Shown here: positions 1,138-12,270 of the stretch, piece by piece
Position numbering within the stretch: position 1 is the stretch's first letter
How the letters are laid out: the number at the start of each line of letters is the position of its first letter
Made by a program: the position numbers and the translations under genes
Notes under the pieces: model-generated
Database searches by the model: none
Seen by the model: only the letters and a program-made list of their open reading frames with translations
Told to the model about the DNA's origin: nothing
Assembly (NCBI GenBank): GCA_016182085.1
Contig: JACOYB010000005.1
Location: forward strand, 1,013 to 65,012
DNA: 64,000 nucleotides
Direction: 5' to 3'
DNA from: Candidatus Magasanikiibacteriota bacterium
Lineage (GTDB): Bacteria > Patescibacteriota > Patescibacteriia > Magasanikbacterales > GWA2-37-8

Positions 1138-1686
1138 CTATTTATAAAATAACTCATGATTACGAAGTTCTTTTTTTATATCTAAATAATTTGGAAGTGC
1201 TTCCTCAACTAAAGACCAGAATTTTCTGGAGTGATTAAATTCCTTCAAATGGCACATCTCGTGCACTATAATATAATCCTGGTGTTTTTGCGATAAAAAC
1301 ACTATTTTATAATTCAAATTTAGATTGTGCTTGCATGAACAACTACCCCAGCGAGTCTTTTGATTTTTAATAAAGATTTTATTGAACGAAAAACCATACA
1401 CCTTATTATAAAATGCAACTCGTTCATTCACAAGAGCAAATGCTTTATCTTTATTTTCTAGATAATCCTTGTTCGAAAAAGTGCGTATAGCCCTACTATC
1501 CACGCTCTTAAAAAATTGTATTTTGTCCCACACCCATTGTTTTTTATCGGTAATAAATTTTTCAATTATCGATTGCTGAACCCCAAAAGGACTCGTAATC
1601 ACAACACTTCCGTCACAATAGACCGCGAGACGCATTCGTTTTGCTCGCTTGCTTCTTTTGAGTTTATAGGGGATTTTCTTTTCCAT
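1138..1686 (-). CDS. YgjP-like (DUF45/WLM-type) zinc metallohydrolase. This family is commonly encoded next to hsdR.
   Basis: The HEMCH zinc-binding motif is present. The protein is 182 aa and lies immediately downstream of hsdR on the same strand. Confidence 0.55.
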   Translation of the reverse strand: MEKKIPYKLKRSKRAKRMRLAVYCDGSVVITSPFGVQQSIIEKFITDKKQWVWDKIQFFKSVDSRAIRTFSNKDYLENKDKAFALVNERVAFYNKVYGFSFNKIFIKNQKTRWGSCSCKHNLNLNYKIVFLSQKHQDYIIVHEMCHLKEFNHSRKFWSLVEEALPNYLDIKKELRNHELFYK

Positions 1687-1691
1687 ACGCT

Positions 1692-4607
1692 CTAGAATTT
1701 TTTAGTGATTATATCCACCAACCTATTCAAGAATTTCGGAAAATCTTTTACAACAAACCTGCCTTTATAATCTCGTAATATTATCTCCTGCAGCGTTTGT
1801 TTGATATCCTTTATAAAAACATCCCTCTTTGAGGATTCCTGCCACCCAGCATCAAGATCATCCTCTATACGAATTCGCAACTCCTTCACAAACTTTTTAA
1901 TCTCCTCATCTTTTCCACCTTCAATGAATTCCTGCGAGATTACATAGAGCGCGTACTCTTTTAAATCAAGCCCCAAATCTTTCGCTTCGCCCCCTTTTGT
2001 TCGGATATCTCTCATCAATTCTTCATACCGACGAATTCGTTCAGCAAGATCAATCTGATTCTGTTCAAACTCTTTACGAATAGCGGTAAGTCGCTCGCTG
2101 AACTTCTGGTAGGCTGGATTTTCATCTAGGTTGATTGAAATTTCTTGCTTGAGCATTTTCTCAAGATTCAATGCCTTTTCTTCCTCATCCATCCCTTTTA
2201 ATCGCTCGAGCGTATATAAATCATTCACGCGAAGTTCACGAAAATTCTTAGTGATTCCTTCATAATCAATAATATTACTTTTTTGAATTAATTCTCTAAC
2301 TTTCTCACCGTATTCTTCCAGTAAATATCTGTCGTCTTCACTTCGAAAATGTTTCAAAAATGCTAAATAAAAACTCGTTACCCACTCAAACTGGCGAATA
2401 TACTGCTTCAAGAATGGATCAGGCGATAAAAACTCAAACAAACTCTTGAGCTTCATATATTTCTCAACAAAGTATTTTTGTTTGTCTTGATTATCCATAA
2501 AAATCTTCAAGCATCGGCGAAGGTTATCCATCGACGGATCTTCGATATTCACTCCTGTAAATATCTTCATCATATCATTCAATACGTCCACAAATCTCTC
2601 TTTCACCCGTTCAATATCAATCATCGCTGAATCTATAACATCCTCATCAAAATCAAGCGCATCATACAAATTTCTTGTAATTCCATAATAATCAATAATT
2701 TTTCCCGCTTCTTTGTTTTTATACACACGATTTGTACGCGCAATCGCCTGCAAAAGGTTGTGGTCACGAAGTGGTTTATCGAGATACATCACCTGCTCTA
2801 TAGGCGCATCAAAGCCAGTAAGCAACATGTCGCACACTAAAAGAAATTTCAAAGACGATTTTGGATCTTTGAATCGTTCAATAATTTGTTCGCGTTCACG
2901 CTTGCTAGTGTTATACACTTTCAAATCATCAGCATCGCTATTTGGATCTCCTGGCGAATACACCACGGCTGACCATTCGGTAGGAATAAACTTATCAAGC
3001 AATTTCTTATAAGTCGCCACAGCTTCGCGGTCATACGCTACAATCTGCGCCTTAAAGCCATTTGGCTCAACATAGAGCTTGTAATGTTCAATAATGTCCC
3101 TTGCAACGGCTTCCATGCGTTTTGGCAATTTAACCAAAGCCGCTTTCTTACCATATTTCTTCACCAACTCGGTTTTTTGTTTATCTGGCAAATCTCCGGC
3201 AATTTCTTCAAACTTCTGATCAAGTTTTTCTTCATCAATAGAAAACTTAGAAAGTCGCGCTTCATAAGTCACCGGGATTGTCGCTCCGTCATCAATAGCT
3301 TGCTGAATGGAATAATAATCCAAATACCGTTTTCCCTCACCTTCATAATTTCGGAAAGTGTTTGTATGTGTTTTATCCACCGGAGTACCAGTGAATCCAA
3401 AGAAGAATGCTTTTTTAAACGCATTACGCATATTGATACCCGATACGCCCTCGTCGCCACGGTGTGCTTCGTCAGAAAGAATAATCACATTCTCGTCTAG
3501 ATTTTGTACTTTATCACCAAGTTCGGAAAACTTTTGAATGGTCGTGATGAAAATACCTTTCTCTGGTGATTGAATTTTTAGCTCTAAATCCTTACGAGAA
3601 GTGACACGAACAATATTTTTTCCTCCCGCATTAGTAAATGTTTCAAATATCTGATCGTCCAAATCTACGCGATCAACCAAAATAAACACCTTCGGATTAG
3701 CAAGTTGTTTATTGAAACGCAATTTCCATGCCGTAAAATACATTGTAAGCGTCTTGCCCGATCCTTGCGTATGCCAAATAAGCCCTTGTCGTTTTTCTTT
3801 ATTCACAACACGCTCCACAATTTTATTTGTTGCTCTCATTTGCTGATAGCGAGCCATTTTCTTCACCAATCTTTCTTTTTCTTTTTCAAATAAAATAAAG
3901 TTTTGAACGATATCCAAAAAGTTTGCTTTAGAGAGTAATGAAAAAAGTGTCATCTCCAGTTCTCCGCCTAGTTCTTTTTCGGCATTCTCATCACGCCACT
4001 GAAGAAAATATTGTTTTGGCGTACCGGTTGCACCGTAAACAGTTTTGAGCCCGTCACTGGCGATATTGAAACAGTTTGGAATAAATAATTTACGAGCAAC
4101 TTTTTCATATCGTTTTATTTGGTCAATACCATTCTCAAAACTAACTCCTTCGGAAGCTGTCGGACTTTTGGCTTCAATATCCACGAGCGGAAACCCGTTC
4201 ACAAAAATGATAATATCCGGACGAATATTTTCGGTGTCGCCTTCAAAATAGAACTGATTAGTAACGACAAATTGATTATTTTCCGGATTGTCAAAATCAA
4301 GCAGTTTGTAATCGTGCTTTTTTCCTGTAGATGAATTCTTAAGGTTGATCCCATCTCGTAATACTTTCAAAAAAGCTTCGTTGTTATCAATTTTTCTCAC
4401 CTCGCGAATCACATTCTTGATCTCGCTTTCGTTCGCAGTAGGATTGAGGGCAGAAAGCGCGCGTTCCAAAAGCGGAGTGGTGATGTATTCCGTCTCAAGT
4501 TCGCGATACTTCACAAACTCCTCCGGCTTTATATACTCAAAACCAAGCTTATCTTTAATAAACTTGATGATGTAATTTTCGATTGTAACTTGTTCGTTGA
4601 ATTTCAT
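1692..4607 (-). CDS. hsdR: Type I restriction enzyme R subunit (HsdR)
   Basis: The protein is 971 aa with helicase motifs (GSGKT Walker A, DEAH box in ILSDEAHRG). Its start overlaps the hsdS stop by 4 bp. Confidence 0.9.
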   Translation of the reverse strand: MKFNEQVTIENYIIKFIKDKLGFEYIKPEEFVKYRELETEYITTPLLERALSALNPTANESEIKNVIREVRKIDNNEAFLKVLRDGINLKNSSTGKKHDYKLLDFDNPENNQFVVTNQFYFEGDTENIRPDIIIFVNGFPLVDIEAKSPTASEGVSFENGIDQIKRYEKVARKLFIPNCFNIASDGLKTVYGATGTPKQYFLQWRDENAEKELGGELEMTLFSLLSKANFLDIVQNFILFEKEKERLVKKMARYQQMRATNKIVERVVNKEKRQGLIWHTQGSGKTLTMYFTAWKLRFNKQLANPKVFILVDRVDLDDQIFETFTNAGGKNIVRVTSRKDLELKIQSPEKGIFITTIQKFSELGDKVQNLDENVIILSDEAHRGDEGVSGINMRNAFKKAFFFGFTGTPVDKTHTNTFRNYEGEGKRYLDYYSIQQAIDDGATIPVTYEARLSKFSIDEEKLDQKFEEIAGDLPDKQKTELVKKYGKKAALVKLPKRMEAVARDIIEHYKLYVEPNGFKAQIVAYDREAVATYKKLLDKFIPTEWSAVVYSPGDPNSDADDLKVYNTSKREREQIIERFKDPKSSLKFLLVCDMLLTGFDAPIEQVMYLDKPLRDHNLLQAIARTNRVYKNKEAGKIIDYYGITRNLYDALDFDEDVIDSAMIDIERVKERFVDVLNDMMKIFTGVNIEDPSMDNLRRCLKIFMDNQDKQKYFVEKYMKLKSLFEFLSPDPFLKQYIRQFEWVTSFYLAFLKHFRSEDDRYLLEEYGEKVRELIQKSNIIDYEGITKNFRELRVNDLYTLERLKGMDEEEKALNLEKMLKQEISINLDENPAYQKFSERLTAIRKEFEQNQIDLAERIRRYEELMRDIRTKGGEAKDLGLDLKEYALYVISQEFIEGGKDEEIKKFVKELRIRIEDDLDAGWQESSKRDVFIKDIKQTLQEIILRDYKGRFVVKDFPKFLNRLVDIITKKF

Positions 4608-5746
4608 ATATTTGTTCGTACTACCCCACTCAACAAGTCCTGCATTAGGCCTTTCTTGAGGAGAGTAAGTTTTTCTTTTAATTTTTTATTGACCAAAATC
4701 TTTTTATCAACTGCGGAAAGAATTTCTGCAATCTCTTTTATTTCAGAGGTTTTTTTTGGCTTCGGTATTGGTATCATAAAAAGTCGATCCTTATTTAACT
4801 TCGGTTGAGTCATCCCCGTTAGATACGGCCCCAGATTAAGCATATTCAAATAATCTTGGACATATTGTTGTAAAAATTTATCTTCAAATCTTTGAATATG
4901 TGCATGATTATTCACCCAATACTTACCAGTTGCAGTAAAAGCAATAGGATAATTTCTATCTTTAAGATTCGCGCCATCTTCCGAAATTAGTAATAACGTT
5001 TCTTCAAAAATATAATCACTAACATAATCAACGATGCCTGTTGCGCCGTAGTAGGGATATTGTCCAGTGCTTCTTTTTGATTTAGTTATCGGAATGCGTT
5101 TGTTATCCAAGTTTTTAGAAATATCTTCCAAGCTCAACACATCCCACTCTTCCGGAATCTGTCCGATTTTTGTCTCCTTAAATTTTGTATGCCCAATCCC
5201 GCGAGTAAAAAGCTGTTGCATCAATCCGCGCTTGAGCTTTTCTGTCGCCTCAATCACTTCCTGCGTTTTCGCAATATCCTCATCCACCGCTCCCAAAATT
5301 TCGGCAATTTTTTGTTGTTCAGGGAACGGCGGAACCAACACTTCCAAATTCTGATATTGCGATATGTAGAATCGTTTATGACTTCCAGTAGGAAAATTAA
5401 CAGATTTCATTTTTGCATAAAAAAATCGCAAATCCACATCAGATCTTTTTTCTTTCAAAATTTTAATAGCTGATGACTTTATTTTAAACGGAAAATCAAC
5501 AAACTTACTATCAGTTGTAAAATCATCAAAGATGATTACTGGAAGATTTTTATAAACCCCAAAATCTTCATCCGTATAACCCAATACAAAAGACTTATTT
5601 GCCGTAAGTACGGGGGTCTTTGCTTTGTCGCTATAACTTGTACTTTTAACGATATAATTATCGGGACGCTCATAACCCAAAATATCGCTCAATTTTTTAA
5701 GCGACCACCCTTTTGGAATATTTTGTTGTGTGATGTTAGTTTTCAT
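4604..5746 (-). CDS. hsdS: Type I restriction-modification specificity subunit (HsdS)
   Basis: The protein is 380 aa with two target-recognition-domain halves and conserved central and C-terminal coiled regions (LKRGLMQQL / LKKGLMQDLL repeats). Confidence 0.8.
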   Translation of the reverse strand: MKTNITQQNIPKGWSLKKLSDILGYERPDNYIVKSTSYSDKAKTPVLTANKSFVLGYTDEDFGVYKNLPVIIFDDFTTDSKFVDFPFKIKSSAIKILKEKRSDVDLRFFYAKMKSVNFPTGSHKRFYISQYQNLEVLVPPFPEQQKIAEILGAVDEDIAKTQEVIEATEKLKRGLMQQLFTRGIGHTKFKETKIGQIPEEWDVLSLEDISKNLDNKRIPITKSKRSTGQYPYYGATGIVDYVSDYIFEETLLLISEDGANLKDRNYPIAFTATGKYWVNNHAHIQRFEDKFLQQYVQDYLNMLNLGPYLTGMTQPKLNKDRLFMIPIPKPKKTSEIKEIAEILSAVDKKILVNKKLKEKLTLLKKGLMQDLLSGVVRTNI

Positions 5747-5748
5747 AC

Positions 5749-6648
5749 CTAACTATCAATTCTAATAATCTTAGACGCGTGATTTGGATCTTCGGTTTTC
5801 TCCTGAATTGTAAGTTGTCTATAATACCTACAAGAATATCTTAAATAATCTTCTAACTCATCCAGATCTATATTGCCCTTCTTCAAATCAACGGGGTAGA
5901 TTGAAATAATCAATTTCTCACAGATATTAAGTGTTTTAGAAGTTTCTACATAACTTGCAATGATTTCCTTGATTGATCCTGTGCGAGATAAGTAAGAGTC
6001 CCTTCCATGTTGAGTATTAATCAGTGGAATAGTGACTGCGCTATCCTTAGCAGATTCCAATGCAACGTAAGACCACAGTCCATTCAGGGCTTGAATAAAA
6101 TCATCAATTTCAGATTTCACTCGATTATTACCATTTTTTACAGAATTCACTACGAGATAAAACTTTTTTCCATTTTGCTCAACTTCAATTGTTTTTCCAA
6201 CATCATGGTTAGTCCCAATAGACAACTTAGCGGAAATATCAGTATTTAAGTGTTCGGTTTTTCCATTGTAAAATTTCTGAATTACTTGATTCTGAATACT
6301 ATTTGCCTTTTGAACATTCCCCCCAAGAGACATATCAAATTGATCATTTACAGGGACCACAAGAGCACCTTTATTTTCAAAAGCATCGCCGACTCTGATT
6401 TCCAGAAAATTATCTTTACCGCGCAAGTGATAACCAAAGTGTGATTTCGGTTTATTTTTTACAATAGCAAATAGAAGGATAATAATAAAAACAAAGGCGA
6501 AAACATCAACTTTTTTTAGATAAACATCGGCAGAACCTGCTGTGCTATAACTGGCAATCTCTACAAATAGCCAAAAGATACCTACAAATGACACAAGGTC
6601 CACTAAAATAAATTTCCATTTTTTTATCCACCTCTTTAATAAACTCAT
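5749..6648 (-). CDS. Two-TM N-terminus plus a Macro-like domain protein. It is a candidate type II Thoeris ThsA-like effector.
   Basis: There are two N-terminal hydrophobic helices (residues ~12-32 and 45-63). The soluble domain carries a macro-like motif, GDAFENKGALVVPVNDQFDMSLGGNV. The gene overlaps the upstream TIR-like gene by 4 bp. Confidence 0.45.
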   Translation of the reverse strand: MSLLKRWIKKWKFILVDLVSFVGIFWLFVEIASYSTAGSADVYLKKVDVFAFVFIIILLFAIVKNKPKSHFGYHLRGKDNFLEIRVGDAFENKGALVVPVNDQFDMSLGGNVQKANSIQNQVIQKFYNGKTEHLNTDISAKLSIGTNHDVGKTIEVEQNGKKFYLVVNSVKNGNNRVKSEIDDFIQALNGLWSYVALESAKDSAVTIPLINTQHGRDSYLSRTGSIKEIIASYVETSKTLNICEKLIISIYPVDLKKGNIDLDELEDYLRYSCRYYRQLTIQEKTEDPNHASKIIRIDS

Positions 6649-7148
6649 AGCCCTAGATTTTTATAAGTTTCTTCATTATACCTGTAAGCTCCTGATTTTC
6701 TCTCTCCTCTATATTTTTTATCCAACATCTCCCACTCATCTAACGCTTTTGCAATAATTTTTTGGTTAAAACTAACGTGCACAGCCAACTCATCAACAAG
6801 AGTTGCCGGACAAAGACTTCCATCCTTATACCTTTTTCCATTCAGATTTATAACAATAATTGGCAAACTTCTTTTAACAGCTTGTTCGACCTCCCAGAGT
6901 ACAAACTTACGAAGCAATTTTGTTTTTTCACCGACAAGCAAGACAAAAACTTTCGTATTTTGGAGTCTTTCACGAAGCTTGGCTTTAATTGTTTCCTCGC
7001 TTGCCCATGACATTAAATTATTTAAATCATGAGCATCATAAAAGTTAAATGGTGTATTATCATTTTGCTTCCATGCTTGCATCAGCCGATAATAACGAAT
7101 GTCATTATCGGCATCAAACGCAACATAAGTTTTATTTGTGTAGGCCAT
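6645..7148 (-). CDS. TIR-like (DUF1863 / ThsB-like) protein
   Basis: The protein is 167 aa. Its N-terminal YVAFDADNDIRYYRLMQAW and central KVFVLLVGEKTKLLRKFVLWEVEQA match the TIR-like DUF1863 pattern (FSFHYE..D, VLIGS.T..S.WV..EI). Confidence 0.55.
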   Translation of the reverse strand: MAYTNKTYVAFDADNDIRYYRLMQAWKQNDNTPFNFYDAHDLNNLMSWASEETIKAKLRERLQNTKVFVLLVGEKTKLLRKFVLWEVEQAVKRSLPIIVINLNGKRYKDGSLCPATLVDELAVHVSFNQKIIAKALDEWEMLDKKYRGERKSGAYRYNEETYKNLGL

Positions 7149-7175: not shown

Positions 7176-7988
7176 TTATTCCCCACTTTCAATATTCTTT
7201 ACCTTCTTAGACTTCTTTATTCTCGTATGCGCCTTTCCTATCGCGTCCGGCGTTGGCAGATGTTCCGGCATAGTGCCGCCAAGGCTAGCAATGGTGTTGC
7301 GAACTTTTTGACCAACTTCATAATGCGCCAGGCTAGCGTTAGTTTGACCTTGTATATTTTCGCGCTTTATTTTTGCATCAGTTTGAGTGGCGCGAAATAA
7401 GTTGGCTGCTAACTCTTCACTATTCATGTGGTCTAAAATCTTTTGCGACTTCTTCAATCCCTTTTTTTCATGAATATCCTGCATTGTTAGTCCGCCATAC
7501 AAACCTTTATAGCCATAATTCTGGAAAATTGCATAGTTTTCTACCCCTGCTATAGCCGCGGTTTTAGTTAATGCCGTATTGTGTTTTTTCATTTCTTCAC
7601 GCAAATAAACACGACTATGATCTTCAATCAAATTATCAGTTTTTTCTTGGCGTCGGGTCTGAATTGCAAAATAGGTTTGACCTTTAGCAACCACAACCTT
7701 GGTTGGGTCGGAATTTTGCACTATCAAATAACAGGCGTACCGAGATAAATATATGGTATCTATCGGCCTTTCTGCTCCAGAGCCAATCTGGACCATTTCG
7801 TCCATATGGACAAAATGGTTGTGGATAACTTCCCCGCTATTTTCACAAGCAATTTGCGCTTTATCAATAACATTCTGAAATTTACGATAGTCTGGATACT
7901 CTAAAGCCTTGGCCAAATCACGTGAAGACCAATATTCCGCACCATTATTATCTATTCTTTTTATTGATTCAAAGGTATTGTCTGCCAT
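7176..7988 (-). CDS. dinD: DinD-like (DNA-damage-inducible protein D / Bro-N-like) protein
   Basis: The N-terminal FESIKRIDNNGAEYWSSRDLAKALEYPDYRKFQNVIDKAQIAC and the following YLSRYACYLIVQNSDP resemble the DinD family. Confidence 0.5.
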   Translation of the reverse strand: MADNTFESIKRIDNNGAEYWSSRDLAKALEYPDYRKFQNVIDKAQIACENSGEVIHNHFVHMDEMVQIGSGAERPIDTIYLSRYACYLIVQNSDPTKVVVAKGQTYFAIQTRRQEKTDNLIEDHSRVYLREEMKKHNTALTKTAAIAGVENYAIFQNYGYKGLYGGLTMQDIHEKKGLKKSQKILDHMNSEELAANLFRATQTDAKIKRENIQGQTNASLAHYEVGQKVRNTIASLGGTMPEHLPTPDAIGKAHTRIKKSKKVKNIESGE

Positions 7989-7993
7989 ATTAT

Positions 7994-9679
7994 TTAGTAG
8001 TTTAATTCTTTTAAATAGCCTGCAACTTTTTTGTCGGCTGCTTCACGCTCTTTTTCAATCTCCTTCACCTCGCTCCACACTGTTTTCACATCCACCACTT
8101 CCTCATCCTCGCCGTTTTCTACATAGCGTCGCACATTGAGATTAAACTCGTTTTCCTTTAGCTCTTTGATATCCACAACTCGAGCGTATTTTTCAATATC
8201 TCGGTAGCCCTCAAACGCCAACACCATTTTTTCTATATCTTTTTTTCGTAAGCGGTTCTGGTTTTTTCCTTCCTCAAAATCTTGTTCGGCATCAATGATG
8301 AGAATTTTGTTCTTGTGACCCTCTGGTTTATTTTTGTTAAATATCACAATTGCTGCCGGAATACCCGTACCATAAAAAAGTTTTGCAGGAAGAGCAATGA
8401 TGGCTTCGATTAAATCGTTTTTGATAAGATTTTCGCGGATACGACCTTCTGCGCCACCACGGAAAAGCACACCGTGTGGAAGCACGATTCCGGCACGGCC
8501 ATTTTCGTTCATTGATTTCACCATGTGAAGCACGAAAGCATAATCGGCTTTTTTGGCTGGAGGCATTTCGTAGCCGGCAACTCGGCCGTATTTATCATGT
8601 TTAAATATTTCGTATTCCCATTCACTTATAGAATACGGAGGATTAGCAACGCAGATGTCGAACGTCTTCAGCGAACCGTCTGGGTTTAGAAACTTCGGAT
8701 CAGCGAGCGTGTCTCCACGCTGAATGTCGGCACTATCAAGCCCGTGTAGGAACATGTTAATCTTTGCGATTGCATATGTCCCGATATTAATTTCCTGTCC
8801 ATAAAGATAAAGCGAACGGGCTTTTTTGTCTCCCTCTTGGTCTTTTAGATGATGATACGCCTCCAAAAGGAAGCCTCCAGAGCCAACAGCCATGTCATAT
8901 ATATGATCCTTCTCGTGCGGCTTTAAGATGCTAATAATCACACGCTCAACTTCGCGTGGAGTGTAGAATTCTCCACCTTTTTTACCGGCATCCGCCGCAA
9001 ATTGCTCGATTAGATATTCGTACGCATCGCCAAGAAGATCAGAACTGATATAATTGTCTCCAAAATTAAATTGTGAGAAGTGATTTATAAGGCGCTGGAT
9101 TGTTTCATTTGGAAATTTATCTTTATTTGCAAAATCTAGATCATCAAAAATCTTGTCGAGCTTTGGACTATTTGCATTTGTGAGCTTATCAAAAATCCCG
9201 TTTAGTTTATGGCCGATTCCTTCGGCTTGTTTTTGAATTACTTCCCATCGGCAATCTTTTGGAACTTGAAAACGGTGATTGTGGTCTGCGCGCGCAATTT
9301 CTTCATCGTGATATTCTTCTAAAACTTTTTTATACTCTTCATCCCATGAGTCACTAATGCGTTTGTAAAAAAGAAGCCCAAAAATATATTTTTTATAATC
9401 CGAACTATCTATCTTCCCGCGCAAAATATCGGCGCTTCTCCAAAGAAATTGCTTGAGTTGAGTTAGATTCATCTTTCCTTCATCATCTGCGCTAGGAACA
9501 CCGAGCTCTTTTATAATGCTTTTATCGTTTGCGATACGCTCAATATCTTCGGGTTTATATTTTCGATCTTTTCGAGGGCCAACTCGCAAAGGAGTAATGA
9601 GGCCCCTTTTTTCCCAGTTACGAAGAGTGTCTTGATGAATTCCAAATATTTTCGAAACTTCGCTGATTGAGAGTAACAT
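7994..9679 (-). CDS. hsdM: Type I RM DNA methyltransferase (HsdM), with an N-terminal MerR/excisionase-like HTH extension
   Basis: The NPPY catalytic motif (VANPPYSISEW) and the HsdM N-terminal domain (MNLTQLKQFLWRSADILRG) are present. The first ~65 aa (SISEVSKIFGIHQDTLRNWEKRGLI) look like a MerR-type HTH fused in-frame. Confidence 0.85.
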   Translation of the reverse strand: MLLSISEVSKIFGIHQDTLRNWEKRGLITPLRVGPRKDRKYKPEDIERIANDKSIIKELGVPSADDEGKMNLTQLKQFLWRSADILRGKIDSSDYKKYIFGLLFYKRISDSWDEEYKKVLEEYHDEEIARADHNHRFQVPKDCRWEVIQKQAEGIGHKLNGIFDKLTNANSPKLDKIFDDLDFANKDKFPNETIQRLINHFSQFNFGDNYISSDLLGDAYEYLIEQFAADAGKKGGEFYTPREVERVIISILKPHEKDHIYDMAVGSGGFLLEAYHHLKDQEGDKKARSLYLYGQEINIGTYAIAKINMFLHGLDSADIQRGDTLADPKFLNPDGSLKTFDICVANPPYSISEWEYEIFKHDKYGRVAGYEMPPAKKADYAFVLHMVKSMNENGRAGIVLPHGVLFRGGAEGRIRENLIKNDLIEAIIALPAKLFYGTGIPAAIVIFNKNKPEGHKNKILIIDAEQDFEEGKNQNRLRKKDIEKMVLAFEGYRDIEKYARVVDIKELKENEFNLNVRRYVENGEDEEVVDVKTVWSEVKEIEKEREAADKKVAGYLKELNY

Positions 9680-9711: not shown

Positions 9712-9741
9712 ATGATATCATAGGTCTGTATGAATTGTCAA
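9712..9741 (-). promoter_or_regulatory. Candidate sigma70-like promoter for the hsdM operon
   Basis: On the minus strand, TTGACA is followed by an 18-nt spacer and TATCAT, about 35 nt upstream of the hsdM ATG. Confidence 0.35.
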
Positions 9742-9982: not shown

Positions 9983-10145
9983 ACTCGCCTAGGCGAGGCG
10001 GGCGGAATTCCTCCCCCAACCCCTCCTTCCGCCCGTCCTATTCCGTAAATTCCCCTCGTAATTTTTCGTATCCCCGCTGCGAAAACCGAAATGGGGTTAA
10101 AATTGGTAAAATCCCCCAACCTTTTTTGGCTAACCAATCAAATTT
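9983..10145 (-). repeat. IR-B, the right inverted repeat of the defense island (inverted copy of IR-A)
   Basis: The 88-bp core matches IR-A with 1 mismatch. The outer part begins GATTGGTTAGCCAAAA, as IR-A does, and then diverges (~70% identity). Small palindromes sit at the inner ends (CACCGGTG in A, CTCGCCTAGGCGAG in B). Confidence 0.8.
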
Positions 10146-10206
10146 TTTGCCTTTGTCCGCTCGGCGGACGCCAAAAGCAAACTTTTCTAATATAATGTAA
10201 TTTTAT

Positions 10207-11694
10207 ATGGCCAAATACTTTTTGTACGCTCGCAAGTCTAGCGAATCGGAAGAGCGTCAGGTTATGTCGATTGACGCTCAAATCGACGAGTTAAAAGAAT
10301 TTGCCGTCAAAGAAAAACTTGAAATCGTCGCCTCGCTTTGCGAGGCAAAAACTGCCAAACAACCTGGCCGAACTTTGTTCGGCGAAATGTTATCGCGAAT
10401 TGATGCCGGCGAGGCCGACGGCATTTTGGCTTGGCACCCCGACCGCCTAGCCCGCAACAGCGTGGATGGCGGTCGGATAATATATATGTTGGACACTGGT
10501 AAAATAAATTCCCTCAAATTTCCAACGTTTTGGTTTGACAACACACCGCAAGGAAAGTTTATGCTTAATATTTCTTTCGGCCAAAGCAAATATTATGTAG
10601 ATAATCTAAGTGAAAATGTGAAACGTGGAATAAGGCAAAAACTCCGCAAAGGAATTTGGCCGGGGAAAGCTCCGTTTGGATATAATAATGACCTGCGCCA
10701 TCACACCATACTCCCCGACCCCGAAAAGCATAAACTTGTAAAAAGGATTTTTGAATTATATGCGACCGGCGAATATACTTTTGAACAACTAATACAAAAA
10801 TTTGATATTCGTACTAAGACGAACAAAATAATGATGCCGGGCGACATGCAACATATTCTCAAAAATCCTTTTTACAGCGGCGTGTTTCGTTTCAACAACG
10901 AACTCCACCAGGGTACGCATAAACCGATAATAACAAAGAAACTTTTTGACGATGCCCAAGCGGTAATGGCAGCCAGAGGAAAACGCCGCAAGAAAAGCAG
11001 TCATGGATATATTTTTACCGACCTAATGAGTTGCGGGAATTGTGGCCGAGCCATTACCGCCGAAAAGCAAAAAGGTCATGTTTATTATCGCTGTACAAAG
11101 AAACGAACTAACTGCGATGAAAAATATATCCGCGAGGAAGAACTGCTAAGCCAGTTTAGAGACACATTACAAAAAGTTTCTTTGTCAGACGACTGGACCA
11201 AAAATTTGCTTGCTAAACTGGACGAGGAGCAAGCATCCGCAATCCAGTCGTCTAGCGTCCTTGTTCAGGCCGTAGAAGGACAAATAATGCCCATTAAGAC
11301 TAAGATGGACAAACTCCTTGATTCCCATTTAGACGGCATTATTGATAAACAAGATTACGTAAACAAAAAAGAAAAACTCCTAAATGAAAAACTTGATCTG
11401 GAAGCCAAAATTAAAGAAGTGAGGAACAAGGGCAACGATTGGCTCGAACCGATGAGGGAATTTATTTTAGACAGTTGCCAAGCCAAAAAAATCGCCGCGA
11501 ACGGCGATTCTCTTCAAATTCGAACATTTCTTAAAAAAATAGGCTCGAACTTTACGGTGAAAGGCAAAAAATTTGATTGGTTAGCGAAAAGGGGCTGGAA
11601 AATTATGCCCGATTTTGGCCGGTTTCCGACTGTGCAGGCCCGCTCGGATTCGAACCGAGAACCTCGGTTTTGGAGACCGATGTTTTACCATTGA
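10207..11694 (+). CDS. Large serine recombinase (resolvase catalytic domain, recombinase domain and zinc ribbon)
   Basis: The N-terminal YARKSS..SIDAQ contains the catalytic Ser region. Cys-rich CGNCG...YYRC and coiled-coil segments are present. The protein is 495 aa. The 3' end overlaps tRNA-Trp on the opposite strand, so the true stop may lie earlier. Confidence 0.85.
   Translation: MAKYFLYARKSSESEERQVMSIDAQIDELKEFAVKEKLEIVASLCEAKTAKQPGRTLFGEMLSRIDAGEADGILAWHPDRLARNSVDGGRIIYMLDTGKINSLKFPTFWFDNTPQGKFMLNISFGQSKYYVDNLSENVKRGIRQKLRKGIWPGKAPFGYNNDLRHHTILPDPEKHKLVKRIFELYATGEYTFEQLIQKFDIRTKTNKIMMPGDMQHILKNPFYSGVFRFNNELHQGTHKPIITKKLFDDAQAVMAARGKRRKKSSHGYIFTDLMSCGNCGRAITAEKQKGHVYYRCTKKRTNCDEKYIREEELLSQFRDTLQKVSLSDDWTKNLLAKLDEEQASAIQSSSVLVQAVEGQIMPIKTKMDKLLDSHLDGIIDKQDYVNKKEKLLNEKLDLEAKIKEVRNKGNDWLEPMREFILDSCQAKKIAANGDSLQIRTFLKKIGSNFTVKGKKFDWLAKRGWKIMPDFGRFPTVQARSDSNREPRFWRPMFYH
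11573..11634 (+). repeat. Copy C of the island repeat. It is the intact recombinase 3' end, abutting the tRNA-Trp 3' terminus.
   Basis: The 62 nt are ~80% identical to 950-1011 (direct orientation). Similarity stops exactly at the tRNA-Trp discriminator base. Confidence 0.7.
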
Positions 11695-11706
11695 AACTAC
11701 AGGCCT
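11635..11706 (-). tRNA. tRNA-Trp (anticodon CCA)
   Basis: The sequence folds as a cloverleaf: acceptor AGGCCTG/CGGGCCT, anticodon loop CTCCAAA, T-loop TTCGAAT. It closely resembles E. coli tRNA-Trp. Confidence 0.85.
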
Positions 11707-11716
11707 AAGGAACAAA

Positions 11717-11755
11717 CCCCGCCCGAAAATTATCAGAGCGGGGTTTATTTTTTTA
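11717..11755. terminator. Hairpin terminator (CCCCGC..GCGGGG followed by a T-run) between tRNA-Trp/recombinase and rpmG
   Basis: A 6-bp GC stem is followed by TTTATTTTTTT on the plus strand. A weaker T-run follows on the minus strand. Confidence 0.5.
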
Positions 11756-11908
11756 CTTGGTCTCTTTATGAGTGGTGTGCTTCTTGCAAAACTTGCAGAA
11801 CTTTTCCAACTCCAAACGATTCTTCAAAACTTTTTTATTTTTGTTTGGAAAATAGTTCATACGTTTGCATTCCGTACACTCCATTTTCACCCTATTATCT
11901 TGGGACAT
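11753..11908 (-). CDS. rpmG: Ribosomal protein L33 (absent from the ORF track because it is shorter than 60 aa)
   Basis: Translation gives [51 protein letters not shown]. This is the classic L33 signature (ECTECK...LEL.K.C..C.KHT.HKETK). Confidence 0.85.
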
Positions 11909-11947
11909 ATTTTTAAATAAATTATTAATTTTTTAAAACTCGACTCG

Positions 11948-12020
11948 AGCCGTTGTCGGGAATTGAACCCGAGACCTTTTCCTTACCATGGAAATGCTCT
12001 ACCATCTGAGCTACAACGGC
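11948..12020 (-). tRNA. tRNA-Thr (anticodon GGT)
   Basis: Cloverleaf: acceptor GCCGTTG/CAACGGC, anticodon stem TTTCC/GGAAA, loop ATGGTAA. Confidence 0.8.
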
Positions 12021-12091
12021 ATTGATAGTTATAAAGTTAAAAGTTATAAAGTCCAACCAAACTTTCAACTTACGCCGCTCGCGCGGCGTTG

Positions 12092-12173
12092 TGGGTGGAG
12101 TAGGATTCGAACCTACGAAGGCGGAGCCAACAGATTTACAGTCTGCTCCCTTTGACCGCTCGGGAATCCACCC
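12092..12173 (-). tRNA. tRNA-Tyr (anticodon GTA, long variable arm)
   Basis: GGGTGGATTCCCGAGCGGTCAAAGGGAGCAGACTGTAAATCTG...GGTTCGAATCC closely resembles E. coli tRNA-Tyr. Confidence 0.85.
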
Positions 12174-12194
12174 ATTTGACTTTAATTTAAAGTC

Positions 12195-12270
12195 TGGAGC
12201 CGTCTCGGGGGCTCGAACCCCGGACCCACAGTTTACAAAACTGTTGCTCTACCAGCTGAGCTAAGACGGC
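12195..12270 (-). tRNA. tRNA-Thr (anticodon TGT), with CCA encoded
   Basis: GCCGTCTTAGCTCAGCTGGTAGAGCAACAGTTTTGTAAACTGTGGGTCCGGGGTTCGAGCCCCCGAGACGGCTCCA. Confidence 0.85.

Follow-up and report, generated by a model that had tools for sequence, protein, structure and literature searches.

A 64,000-nt stretch of contig JACOYB010000005.1 (the window, to whose positions all coordinates refer) from Candidatus Magasanikiibacteriota, an uncultured, ultra-small host within the Parcubacteria group of Patescibacteria, also termed the Candidate Phyla Radiation (CPR), carries two overlapping genes, thsB and thsA, which we consider with high confidence to be a canonical type II Thoeris system that probably functions in defence against phages (Table 1). 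The system is of a known kind, since both proteins are already recognised by Pfam (PF08937 and PF20016) and PADLOC, and the pair is an uncharacterised member of it. An initial annotation had proposed a type II Thoeris pair consisting of a TIR-like ThsB and a ThsA with two transmembrane helices and a Macro domain, and this proposal is borne out by Pfam, PADLOC and structural comparisons. The three peptide motifs cited in that annotation were all located, FDADNDIRYYRLMQAW at residues 11-26 and KVFVLLVGEKTKLLRKFVLWEVEQAVK at residues 66-92 of ThsB, and GDAFENKGALVVPVNDQFDMSLGGNV at residues 87-112 of ThsA.

Both open reading frames (ORFs) are intact and full length where the initial annotation had placed them, and the 4-bp overlap that it had described between the two genes was found as the tetranucleotide ATGA, through which thsB and thsA are translationally coupled. 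Compared with the closest relative, a locus (L026) that is 85% identical in DNA, the ratio of nonsynonymous to synonymous substitution rates (dN/dS) was ~0.05 for thsB and for thsA, indicating strong purifying selection on both genes. The NCBI record of the identical ThsA sequence is hypothetical protein HYT15_02295 from a Candidatus Magasanikbacteria metagenome-assembled genome (MAG), and identical copies were assembled independently in two sequencing runs.

Family and fold of ThsB

ThsB matched the Pfam family ThsB_TIR (PF08937, DUF1863) with E = 1.6e-19 and the PADLOC ThsB model PDLC00429 with E = 4e-72, the latter with 167 of 167 positions covered. It aligned end to end with Escherichia coli EcThsB2 (PDB 8V6T), with E = 1.7e-32 when searched as a single sequence and E = 1e-41 when searched as a family profile. 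The AlphaFold2 model of ThsB reached a predicted local distance difference test score (pLDDT) of 79.9 and a predicted template modelling score (pTM) of 0.81. The best match of this model in a Foldseek search was again 8V6T, with a template modelling score (TM-score) of 0.85-0.88 and 42% identity, followed by other ThsB/TIR structures and nucleoside 2'-deoxyribosyltransferase/DNPH1 folds, to which this class of TIR domains has been likened (Shi et al., PMC11204291). A Pfam scan identified no further domain in ThsB or ThsA, while NCBIfam holds no model for either protein and is therefore uninformative either way.

To identify conserved positions, ThsB was aligned with 19 orthologues from related loci and with EcThsB2. 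Y8, W26, E86, Y157 and Y162 are invariant in this alignment and again in a second set of 30 database homologues. E86 is the predicted catalytic residue and aligns with the Glu of 'AHEID' in EcThsB2, of 'REEID' in 9UV0 and of 'VRYEI' in BcThsB (6LHY). The structure 9UV0 is taken to be BaThsB, the ThsB of Bacillus amyloliquefaciens, because it forms a pair with 9UUZ, in which the aligned region equals that of the ThsA structure 8R66. The Glu of 6LHY lies at chain position 87 and, by our own count of the numbering, is presumably the published catalytic E85 of BcThsB. The catalytic Glu, the loss of which had been named in the initial annotation as refuting the assignment, is present in ThsB and aligned with its counterparts in all three proteins.

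The invariant Y8 would be the active-site tyrosine next to this Glu. An active-site Tyr has been reported only in ThsBs that partner transmembrane-Macro effectors, and 73.8% of the ThsBs of such systems belong to subfamily 9, which includes the B. amyloliquefaciens ThsB that makes the conjugate of histidine and ADP-ribose (His-ADPR) (PMC11204291). In EcThsB2, a C-terminal tail of ~20 residues with Y159 and Y164 folds back on the TIR domain (PMC11204291). Y157 and Y162 of ThsB align with these two tyrosines, and the C-terminal tail is modelled at a pLDDT >90. The WxxxE motif that was mutated in EcThsB2 was also considered as a criterion. The corresponding residues are W26-K-Q-N-D30, of which W26 is invariant and position 30 is variable, and the motif was not used.

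Relatives of ThsB are numerous. Clustered at 90% identity, they make up no fewer than 1,493 groups, and the top 120 of these share 67-89% identity with the protein described here. Every ThsB orthologue recovered is encoded directly upstream of a transmembrane-Macro ThsA, in a sample that was gathered through ThsA and is therefore one-directional.

Domain architecture of ThsA

The 299-residue ThsA matched the Pfam family ThsA_Macro (PF20016) with E = 1.1e-28 and the PADLOC model PDLC00414 (292 positions) with E = 1.2e-38. A family profile built from 37 relatives matched all solved type II ThsA Macro domains in the PDB, namely 8V6Q (7e-9), 9UUZ (4e-8), 8R66 (5e-8), which is the complex of a ThsA Macro domain with His-ADPR, and 8V6S (0.018). 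The AlphaFold2 model (pLDDT 82.5, pTM 0.76) led to the same structures. The best eight Foldseek matches in the PDB were all solved ThsA Macro structures, 8V6Q, 8V6R, 8R66 and 8V6S among them, with TM-scores of 0.73-0.79 normalised to the target, and they were followed by classical macro domains (Oceanobacillus MacroD, macroH2A and PARP14). A non-macro fold had been named as the outcome that would speak against the initial annotation; instead, the Macro fold was found, with four solved ThsA Macro domains as the nearest structures.

Transmembrane segments were called from Kyte-Doolittle hydropathy means over 19 residues together with the AlphaFold2 helices. The two hydropathy peaks of ThsA, with maxima of 2.3 (residues ~13-35) and 2.4 (residues ~47-65), coincide with modelled helices, and the two N-terminal transmembrane helices described in the initial annotation could thus be confirmed by both approaches. 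Within the first helix, the family alignment shows the conserved polar residues E30, S33 and T36. This pattern matches the amphipathic first transmembrane helix for which a role in lining a membrane lesion has been suggested (Shi et al., PMC11204291). Basic stretches flank the helix pair, MSLLKRWIKKWK before the first helix and KNKPKSH after the second one. According to the positive-inside rule, both termini of ThsA, and thus the C-terminal Macro domain, would be located in the cytoplasm.

In type I ThsA, SLOG serves as the sensor domain, and its absence is a defining feature of type II. A Pfam scan of ThsA gave no match to SIR2 or SLOG at E <= 0.1, and the pair therefore does not qualify as type I Thoeris. 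The ThsA of B. amyloliquefaciens Y2 (BaThsA) consists of a transmembrane part (residues 1-82) and a Macro domain (residues 83-297) and nothing more (10.1101/2024.01.03.573942). The six PADLOC ThsA profiles matched by the protein described here are 278-297 positions long, and the best 120 ThsA-related database clusters are nearly all 296-309 residues in length and carry PF20016 only. When 1.84 billion cluster representatives were searched exhaustively with HMMER, 768 ThsA relatives were retrieved at E <= 1e-3, and the 150 representatives listed among them are mostly ~280-320 residues long. The ThsA/ThsB family is not rare.

Comparison with characterised Thoeris systems

Among the characterised systems, the type II Thoeris of B. 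amyloliquefaciens Y2 (BaThsA/BaThsB; 8R66), which signals through His-ADPR, resembles the present pair in having two genes and a ThsA composed of two transmembrane helices and a Macro domain. The two effectors are similar in length (297 residues in BaThsA), and the Macro domain starts at residue 83 in both. BaThsB is likewise a single ThsB, subfamily-9-like and with a Tyr-containing active site. However, the Macro domains are only ~19-20% identical, and the match of ThsB to 9UV0 (195 residues) reached only 4e-10 in a profile search. Moreover, the B. amyloliquefaciens system is found in a Firmicute, whereas the present one resides in a CPR host, where the cassette lies in a type I restriction-modification (R-M) operon.

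The type II system of E. coli ATCC 25922 comprises EcThsA, EcThsB1 and EcThsB2 (8V6Q/8V6R/8V6T), and the present ThsB is the counterpart of EcThsB2, with which it shares, besides the identity and fold described above, the Tyr/Glu active site and the two tyrosines of the C-terminal tail. In contrast to the E. coli system, there is no gene for a ThsB1 here. Furthermore, EcthsB2 is encoded on the strand opposite to thsA, while the present thsB runs in the same direction as thsA and shares four bases with it. EcThsA and the present ThsA are ~19% identical. Type I Thoeris, with a SIR2-SLOG ThsA that responds to 3'-cyclic ADP-ribose (3'cADPR), follows the same logic of a TIR-like ThsB synthase and a ThsA effector. 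It differs in that the effector described here is anchored in the membrane and senses through a Macro domain, and depletion of NAD+ is not expected as its mode of action.

Proposed signalling and nature of the ligand

By analogy with the characterised type II systems, phage infection would activate ThsB, which is expected to act both as the sensor and as the signal synthase. ThsB would then turn NAD+ into a conjugate of ADP-ribose (ADPR), most likely His-ADPR. Binding of the signal by the cytoplasmic Macro domain would cause ThsA to oligomerise, and the clustered transmembrane helices would damage the membrane or arrest growth, so that phage propagation stops. In the genomic setting described below, the R-M genes would form the first defence layer, with Thoeris as the second. 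This scheme follows published work on other members of the family. Type II ThsA with two transmembrane helices and a Macro domain binds His-ADPR (10.1101/2024.01.03.573942), subfamily-9 ThsBs are the presumed producers of His-ADPR and ligand binding leads Macro domains to oligomerise (PMC11204291), and EcThsA together with ThsB2 alone gives defence, for which the transmembrane helices are required (10.64898/2026.01.22.701046).

The ligand pocket was compared with that of BaThsA, using the chain index of 8R66 plus 80 as BaThsA numbering (checked by N53/Q55 = N133/Q135). His-ADPR is contacted in BaThsA by D100, N133, Q135, S194, R240 and Y277 (10.1101/2024.01.03.573942). Three of these positions align with conserved residues of ThsA. 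D100 (adenine N6) corresponds to D88 and S194 (N-ribose O3') to S169, both nearly invariant in the clade, and R240, which contacts the histidine carboxylate, corresponds to R216, which is invariant in the clade. The equivalent of Y277 falls outside the hidden Markov model (HMM) alignment of ThsA with 8R66. Since ThsB belongs to subfamily 9 and R216 of ThsA is invariant, His-ADPR is probably the actual signal, although we hold this view with less confidence than the assignment of the pair to type II Thoeris.

Several observations weigh against this picture. When ThsA was searched against the PDB as a single sequence, the best match reached only E = 0.16 (8V6Q), and its Macro domain shares no more than 14-20% identity with the ThsA Macro domains of known structure. 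The ligand loop, GSGITR in BaThsA and EcThsA, reads NTQHGR in ThsA and differs at five of six positions, and this loop (residues 212-217) is the sole stretch of the ThsA model with a pLDDT <50. In addition, the position of BaThsA N133, which contacts N-ribose O2', is occupied by a nearly invariant Q119, with N120 adjacent. Because NTQHGR replaces GSGITR and Q119 replaces N133, the signal could differ from His-ADPR. With respect to the proposed mode of action, purified EcThsB2 showed no NADase activity in vitro (PMC11204291), and one E. coli type II system caused growth arrest with neither measurable NAD+ loss nor death, which indicates that membrane-disrupting abortive infection is not universal. 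Finally, the basis for a co-transcription of thsBA with the surrounding genes, described below, consists only of gene spacing and a consensus promoter match.

These differences raise the question of whether the ThsA clade with the NTQHGR loop responds to an ADPR derivative distinct from His-ADPR, such as a different imidazole- or amino-acid-ADPR conjugate, and would thus form a chemically distinct sub-type nested within type II Thoeris. Besides the altered loop, in which T212, H214, G215 and R216 are invariant within the clade, the Q119 substitution and the low identity to the solved Macro domains, this idea draws on the ligand latitude seen in the family, as EcThsA and PcThsA bind both imidazole adenine dinucleotide (IAD) and ADPR (PMC11204291), and on the fact that one TIR cluster, in most cases paired with Macro genes, also adjoins other effector types. 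Nevertheless, ThsB is a typical subfamily-9 protein that retains all hallmark residues and 42% identity to EcThsB2, in a class that includes the His-ADPR-making BaThsB, and the residue aligned with the histidine-carboxylate contact is invariant in ThsA. Moreover, the ligand of BaThsA is largely held by backbone atoms (10.1101/2024.01.03.573942), so the sequence of the loop may not matter. Taken together, a different signal appears rather unlikely.

The cassette in other genomes and in type I R-M operons

The pair sits within a cluster of seven genes on the same strand in the order hsdM-dinD-thsB-thsA-hsdS-hsdR-ygjP, in which the three type I R-M genes hsdM, hsdS and hsdR are all present and intact and neighbouring genes are separated by at most 27 nt or overlap by up to 4 bp. 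Across the related loci, which come from both genomes and metagenomes, ThsB is encoded directly upstream of ThsA in every case with upstream sequence. The ThsA start was callable in 53 non-redundant related pairs, 36 of which show the 4-bp ATGA overlap. In most of the remaining 17, the two genes are -1 to +8 nt apart, and two outliers have spacings of -21 and +65 nt. DNA similarity between loci extends from a few bases before the thsB start to at or before the thsA stop (window ~7155-5747), except that the similarity with L022 additionally covers dinD. The end of similarity at the cassette borders suggests that the mobile unit is the bare 1.4-kb two-gene cassette. The hosts of this cassette include Patescibacteria, Bacteroidales, Zixibacteria, Omnitrophota, Calditrichaceae, Gamma- and Alphaproteobacteria and others.

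Embedded copies were counted among the 26 non-redundant loci that have 1.5 kb or more of flanking sequence on either side. In no fewer than 10 of them, the cassette lies within or next to a type I R-M operon, and three different junctions are used. It lies between hsdM and hsdS in the window, L009, L022 and L027, between hsdS and hsdR in L013, L058, L067 and L068, and between hsdR and hsdM in L019, and in the tenth R-M-linked locus, L026, only 35 residues of the hsdM 3' end are left, immediately upstream of thsB. As the tblastn neighbour counts used two R-M families as queries, the number is a lower bound. A Pfam scan of the immediate neighbours gave the same proportion as tblastn, with a type I subunit upstream in 7 of 21 loci and downstream in 7 of 18. 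Loci L061, L066 and L073 were bracketed with the loci having the cassette in type I R-M operons. At other loci, the neighbours of the cassette include large serine recombinases, Shedu-like genes, GmrSD and type II methylases.

The HsdM proteins of the other embedding loci are only 28-40% identical to the HsdM of the window, while their ThsA proteins are 55-71% identical to the present one, and the C-terminal domains of the HsdR proteins differ. Since the host R-M systems thus belong to different families, repeated and independent insertion of the cassette into type I R-M operons is the simplest reading. Unrelated defence modules inside hsd operons have been described before, namely TgvAB, DarTG2 and PrrC, and have been discussed as 'guilt-by-embedding' (Payne et al. 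2024). Like PrrC/EcoprrI, TgvAB of Vibrio cholerae pathogenicity island VPI-2 and DarTG2 of enteropathogenic E. coli (EPEC), the present cassette is a complete, unrelated module on the same strand and with tight spacing, and both the hsdS-hsdR and the hsdM-hsdS junctions serve for insertion in related loci. It differs from them in that the module is Thoeris. The embedding of Thoeris is therefore an instance of a known pattern. We found nothing specific in the literature on Thoeris inside hsd operons or in CPR bacteria, although large-scale surveys may include hsd-embedded Thoeris, and Thoeris is unmentioned in the main text of Payne et al. (2024).

Three side observations concern the cassette at single loci. 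The order hsdM-dinD-thsB-thsA recurs in an Omnitrophota MAG (L022; dinD at 2429-3187), whose DinD is 60% identical to that of the window. In the same locus, the ThsA match at 3787-4643 is split over two frames at about residue 171, as a frameshifted pseudogene or an assembly error. A database protein of 469 residues (P0119) contains ThsA_Macro followed by ThsB_TIR and probably corresponds to locus L055 on metagenome contig Ga0256845_1023236, where the TIR-like frame runs on beyond the ThsA match. Either effector and sensor are naturally fused in this protein, or the fusion is an artefact of gene calling.

In analogy to the PrrC anticodon nuclease, which is found almost only inside type I R-M systems such as EcoprrI, the embedding could also mean that ThsB is not autonomous and is instead restrained by the Hsd complex or the DinD-like protein, or senses their upset. 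The tight spacing of the seven-gene cluster and the recurrence of the cassette at three positions in operons of different R-M families would fit such a coupling. On the other hand, hsd genes are missing next to ~60% of the related cassettes, the similarity in DNA between loci does not reach beyond the borders of the cassette, and the B. amyloliquefaciens and E. coli type II systems are autonomous in heterologous hosts. Furthermore, modules embedded in hsd operons are common, including unrelated systems, and are usually read as hotspot insertions. We therefore regard a coupling to the R-M system as improbable.

A decaying, non-functional insertion in the hsd operon would find parallels in the embedded Omnitrophota copy with its split ThsA and in a partial ThsA fragment in L024. 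In the window, however, both ORFs are full length with all hallmark residues kept, and the low dN/dS and the identical copies from two independently assembled runs make decay very improbable. The suggestion in the initial annotation that the effector might be 'minimal or divergent' for want of a SLOG or other C-terminal domain did not hold, since 299 residues is the usual type II length. A minimal or otherwise new Thoeris variant without an effector domain, for which only the fact that the Macro domain is the sole domain besides the transmembrane helices could be cited, is hardly credible and was rejected, as domain layout and length equal those of the reference BaThsA, the PADLOC profiles and the relatives of ~300 residues.

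The host operon

The coordinates of the Thoeris genes, their key features and the surrounding operon are listed in Table 1. No convincing terminator was found between the operon genes. The best sigma-70-like promoter match, located just upstream of hsdM, is a candidate promoter of the whole seven-gene operon, and thsBA are likely co-transcribed with the hsd genes.

Table 1. Features of the thsBA cassette and its host operon in the 64,000-nt window.
Feature	Position	Strand	Description
thsB	6645..7148	minus	167 aa, ATG start; single-domain TIR-like protein (DUF1863), subfamily 9 (EcThsB2-like)
Codon of ThsB Y8	7125..7127	minus	Putative active-site Tyr; NKTYVAF motif identical to EcThsB2; invariant
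Codon of ThsB E86	6891..6893	minus	Predicted catalytic Glu (W85-E86); invariance and alignment to known ThsBs
thsB/thsA stop/start overlap	6645..6648	minus	4 bp, ATGA
thsA	5749..6648	minus	299 aa, ATG start; two N-terminal transmembrane helices and C-terminal Macro domain
ThsA transmembrane helix 1 (residues ~13-35)	6544..6612	minus	Hydropathy; AlphaFold2 helix 11-35; amphipathic
ThsA transmembrane helix 2 (residues ~47-65)	6454..6510	minus	Hydropathy up to 2.44; AlphaFold2 helix 47-64
ThsA Macro domain (Pfam envelope, residues 83-251)	5896..6402	minus	Pfam, profile search, Foldseek
Candidate promoter	9712..9741	minus	TTGACA-18-TATCAT, with TG; just upstream of hsdM; consensus match, CPR promoters being uncharacterised
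hsdM	7994..9679	minus	Type I R-M methylase, first gene; Pfam N6_Mtase 1.6e-109, HsdM_N
dinD-like Bro-N gene	7176..7988	minus	Between hsdM and thsB; NCBIfam DinD equivalog 1.6e-110; PADLOC PDC-S13 1e-111; Pfam Bro-N
hsdS	4604..5746	minus	Begins 2 nt past thsA stop; Pfam Methylase_S 7.5e-28, two target-recognition stretches
hsdR	1692..4607	minus	4-bp overlap with hsdS; Pfam HSDR_N, SWI2_SNF2, ResIII, T1RH-like_C
ygjP-like metallopeptidase gene	1138..1686	minus	Last gene; Pfam PF01863 2.3e-41

Three of the accompanying genes showed further features. The N-terminus of HsdM contains a MerR-type helix-turn-helix (residues 4-51; MerR_1, 3.8e-12) ahead of HsdM_N and N6_Mtase, which may be a built-in regulator of the operon. 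The N-terminal 261 of the 717 positions of a PADLOC 'type I specificity subunit' model are also matched by the DinD-like protein, so that fusions of DinD and HsdS appear to exist. A YgjP-like gene follows hsdR not only here but also in the related R-M loci L009 and L073, suggesting that this family of type I R-M systems conserves it as an accessory gene.

Repeats, recombinase and tRNA genes flanking the operon

Inverted repeats of ~167 nt bracket the R-M/Thoeris operon at 927-1093 and 9997-10159. One part of each repeat is a copy of ~85 nt of the 3' end of a serine-recombinase gene (927-1013 on the plus and 10077-10159 on the minus strand; 71-86% identity). Both of these copies encode the C-terminal tail only ('..DWLAKRGWGI..QRGYEKLRGEFTE' followed by the stop) and have no upstream ORF. 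The other part is an 84-nt G-rich unit at 1010-1093 and 9997-10080, 99% identical between the two positions, with the hairpin GGGCGGAA...TTCCGCCC. The 84-nt unit occurs in only two copies in the window, had no Rfam match at E <= 1 and no exact copy in IMG/VR, and its folding is unremarkable on one strand and has z = -2.4 on the other. A mobile-element scar, an invertible segment and a terminator are candidate explanations for this unit, and the operon-bracketing repeats as a whole might represent scars left by nested integrative elements, or else mark a segment that can invert.

An intact serine recombinase gene is located at 10207-11694. It is flanked by the inverted pair 10077-10159 / 11555-11637 (the latter within 11551-11637) and abuts the 3' end of a tRNA-Trp gene, into which its ORF extends ~60 nt in antisense. 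Overlap of a recombinase with a tRNA gene is typical of integration at a tRNA gene. To the right of the recombinase, the minus strand carries tRNA-Thr(TGT), tRNA-Tyr, tRNA-Thr(GGT), a 51-residue zinc-ribbon ORF and tRNA-Trp (11634-12270); by eye, the small ORF looks like rpmG (L33). The G+C content is 0.34-0.40 across the island as compared with 0.41-0.46 to its right. The low G+C stretch reaches the left edge of the window, and the gene to the left of 927 runs off the window.

Implications

With the cassette described here, Thoeris joins the systems that use hsd operons as insertion hotspots. The pair provides a clean example of TIR-based signalling immunity in the reduced genome of a CPR/Patescibacteria member, Candidatus Magasanikiibacteriota, and represents a self-contained module that occurs across phyla, the flanking DNA not being shared. 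For the biology of Thoeris itself, the finding has little consequence, as standard tools recognise both genes even though NCBI names ThsA hypothetical. We consider it unlikely that the cross-phylum NTQHGR clade is a distinct sub-type with a signal other than His-ADPR, or is wired to type I R-M systems, or both. The recurrent embedding nevertheless makes for a testable, though unlikely, case of R-M/Thoeris coupling. Roughly one third of the clade's members reside in type I R-M operons. If the clade were indeed wired to R-M in the manner of a PrrC-like guard, Thoeris would be triggered when a phage disables restriction.

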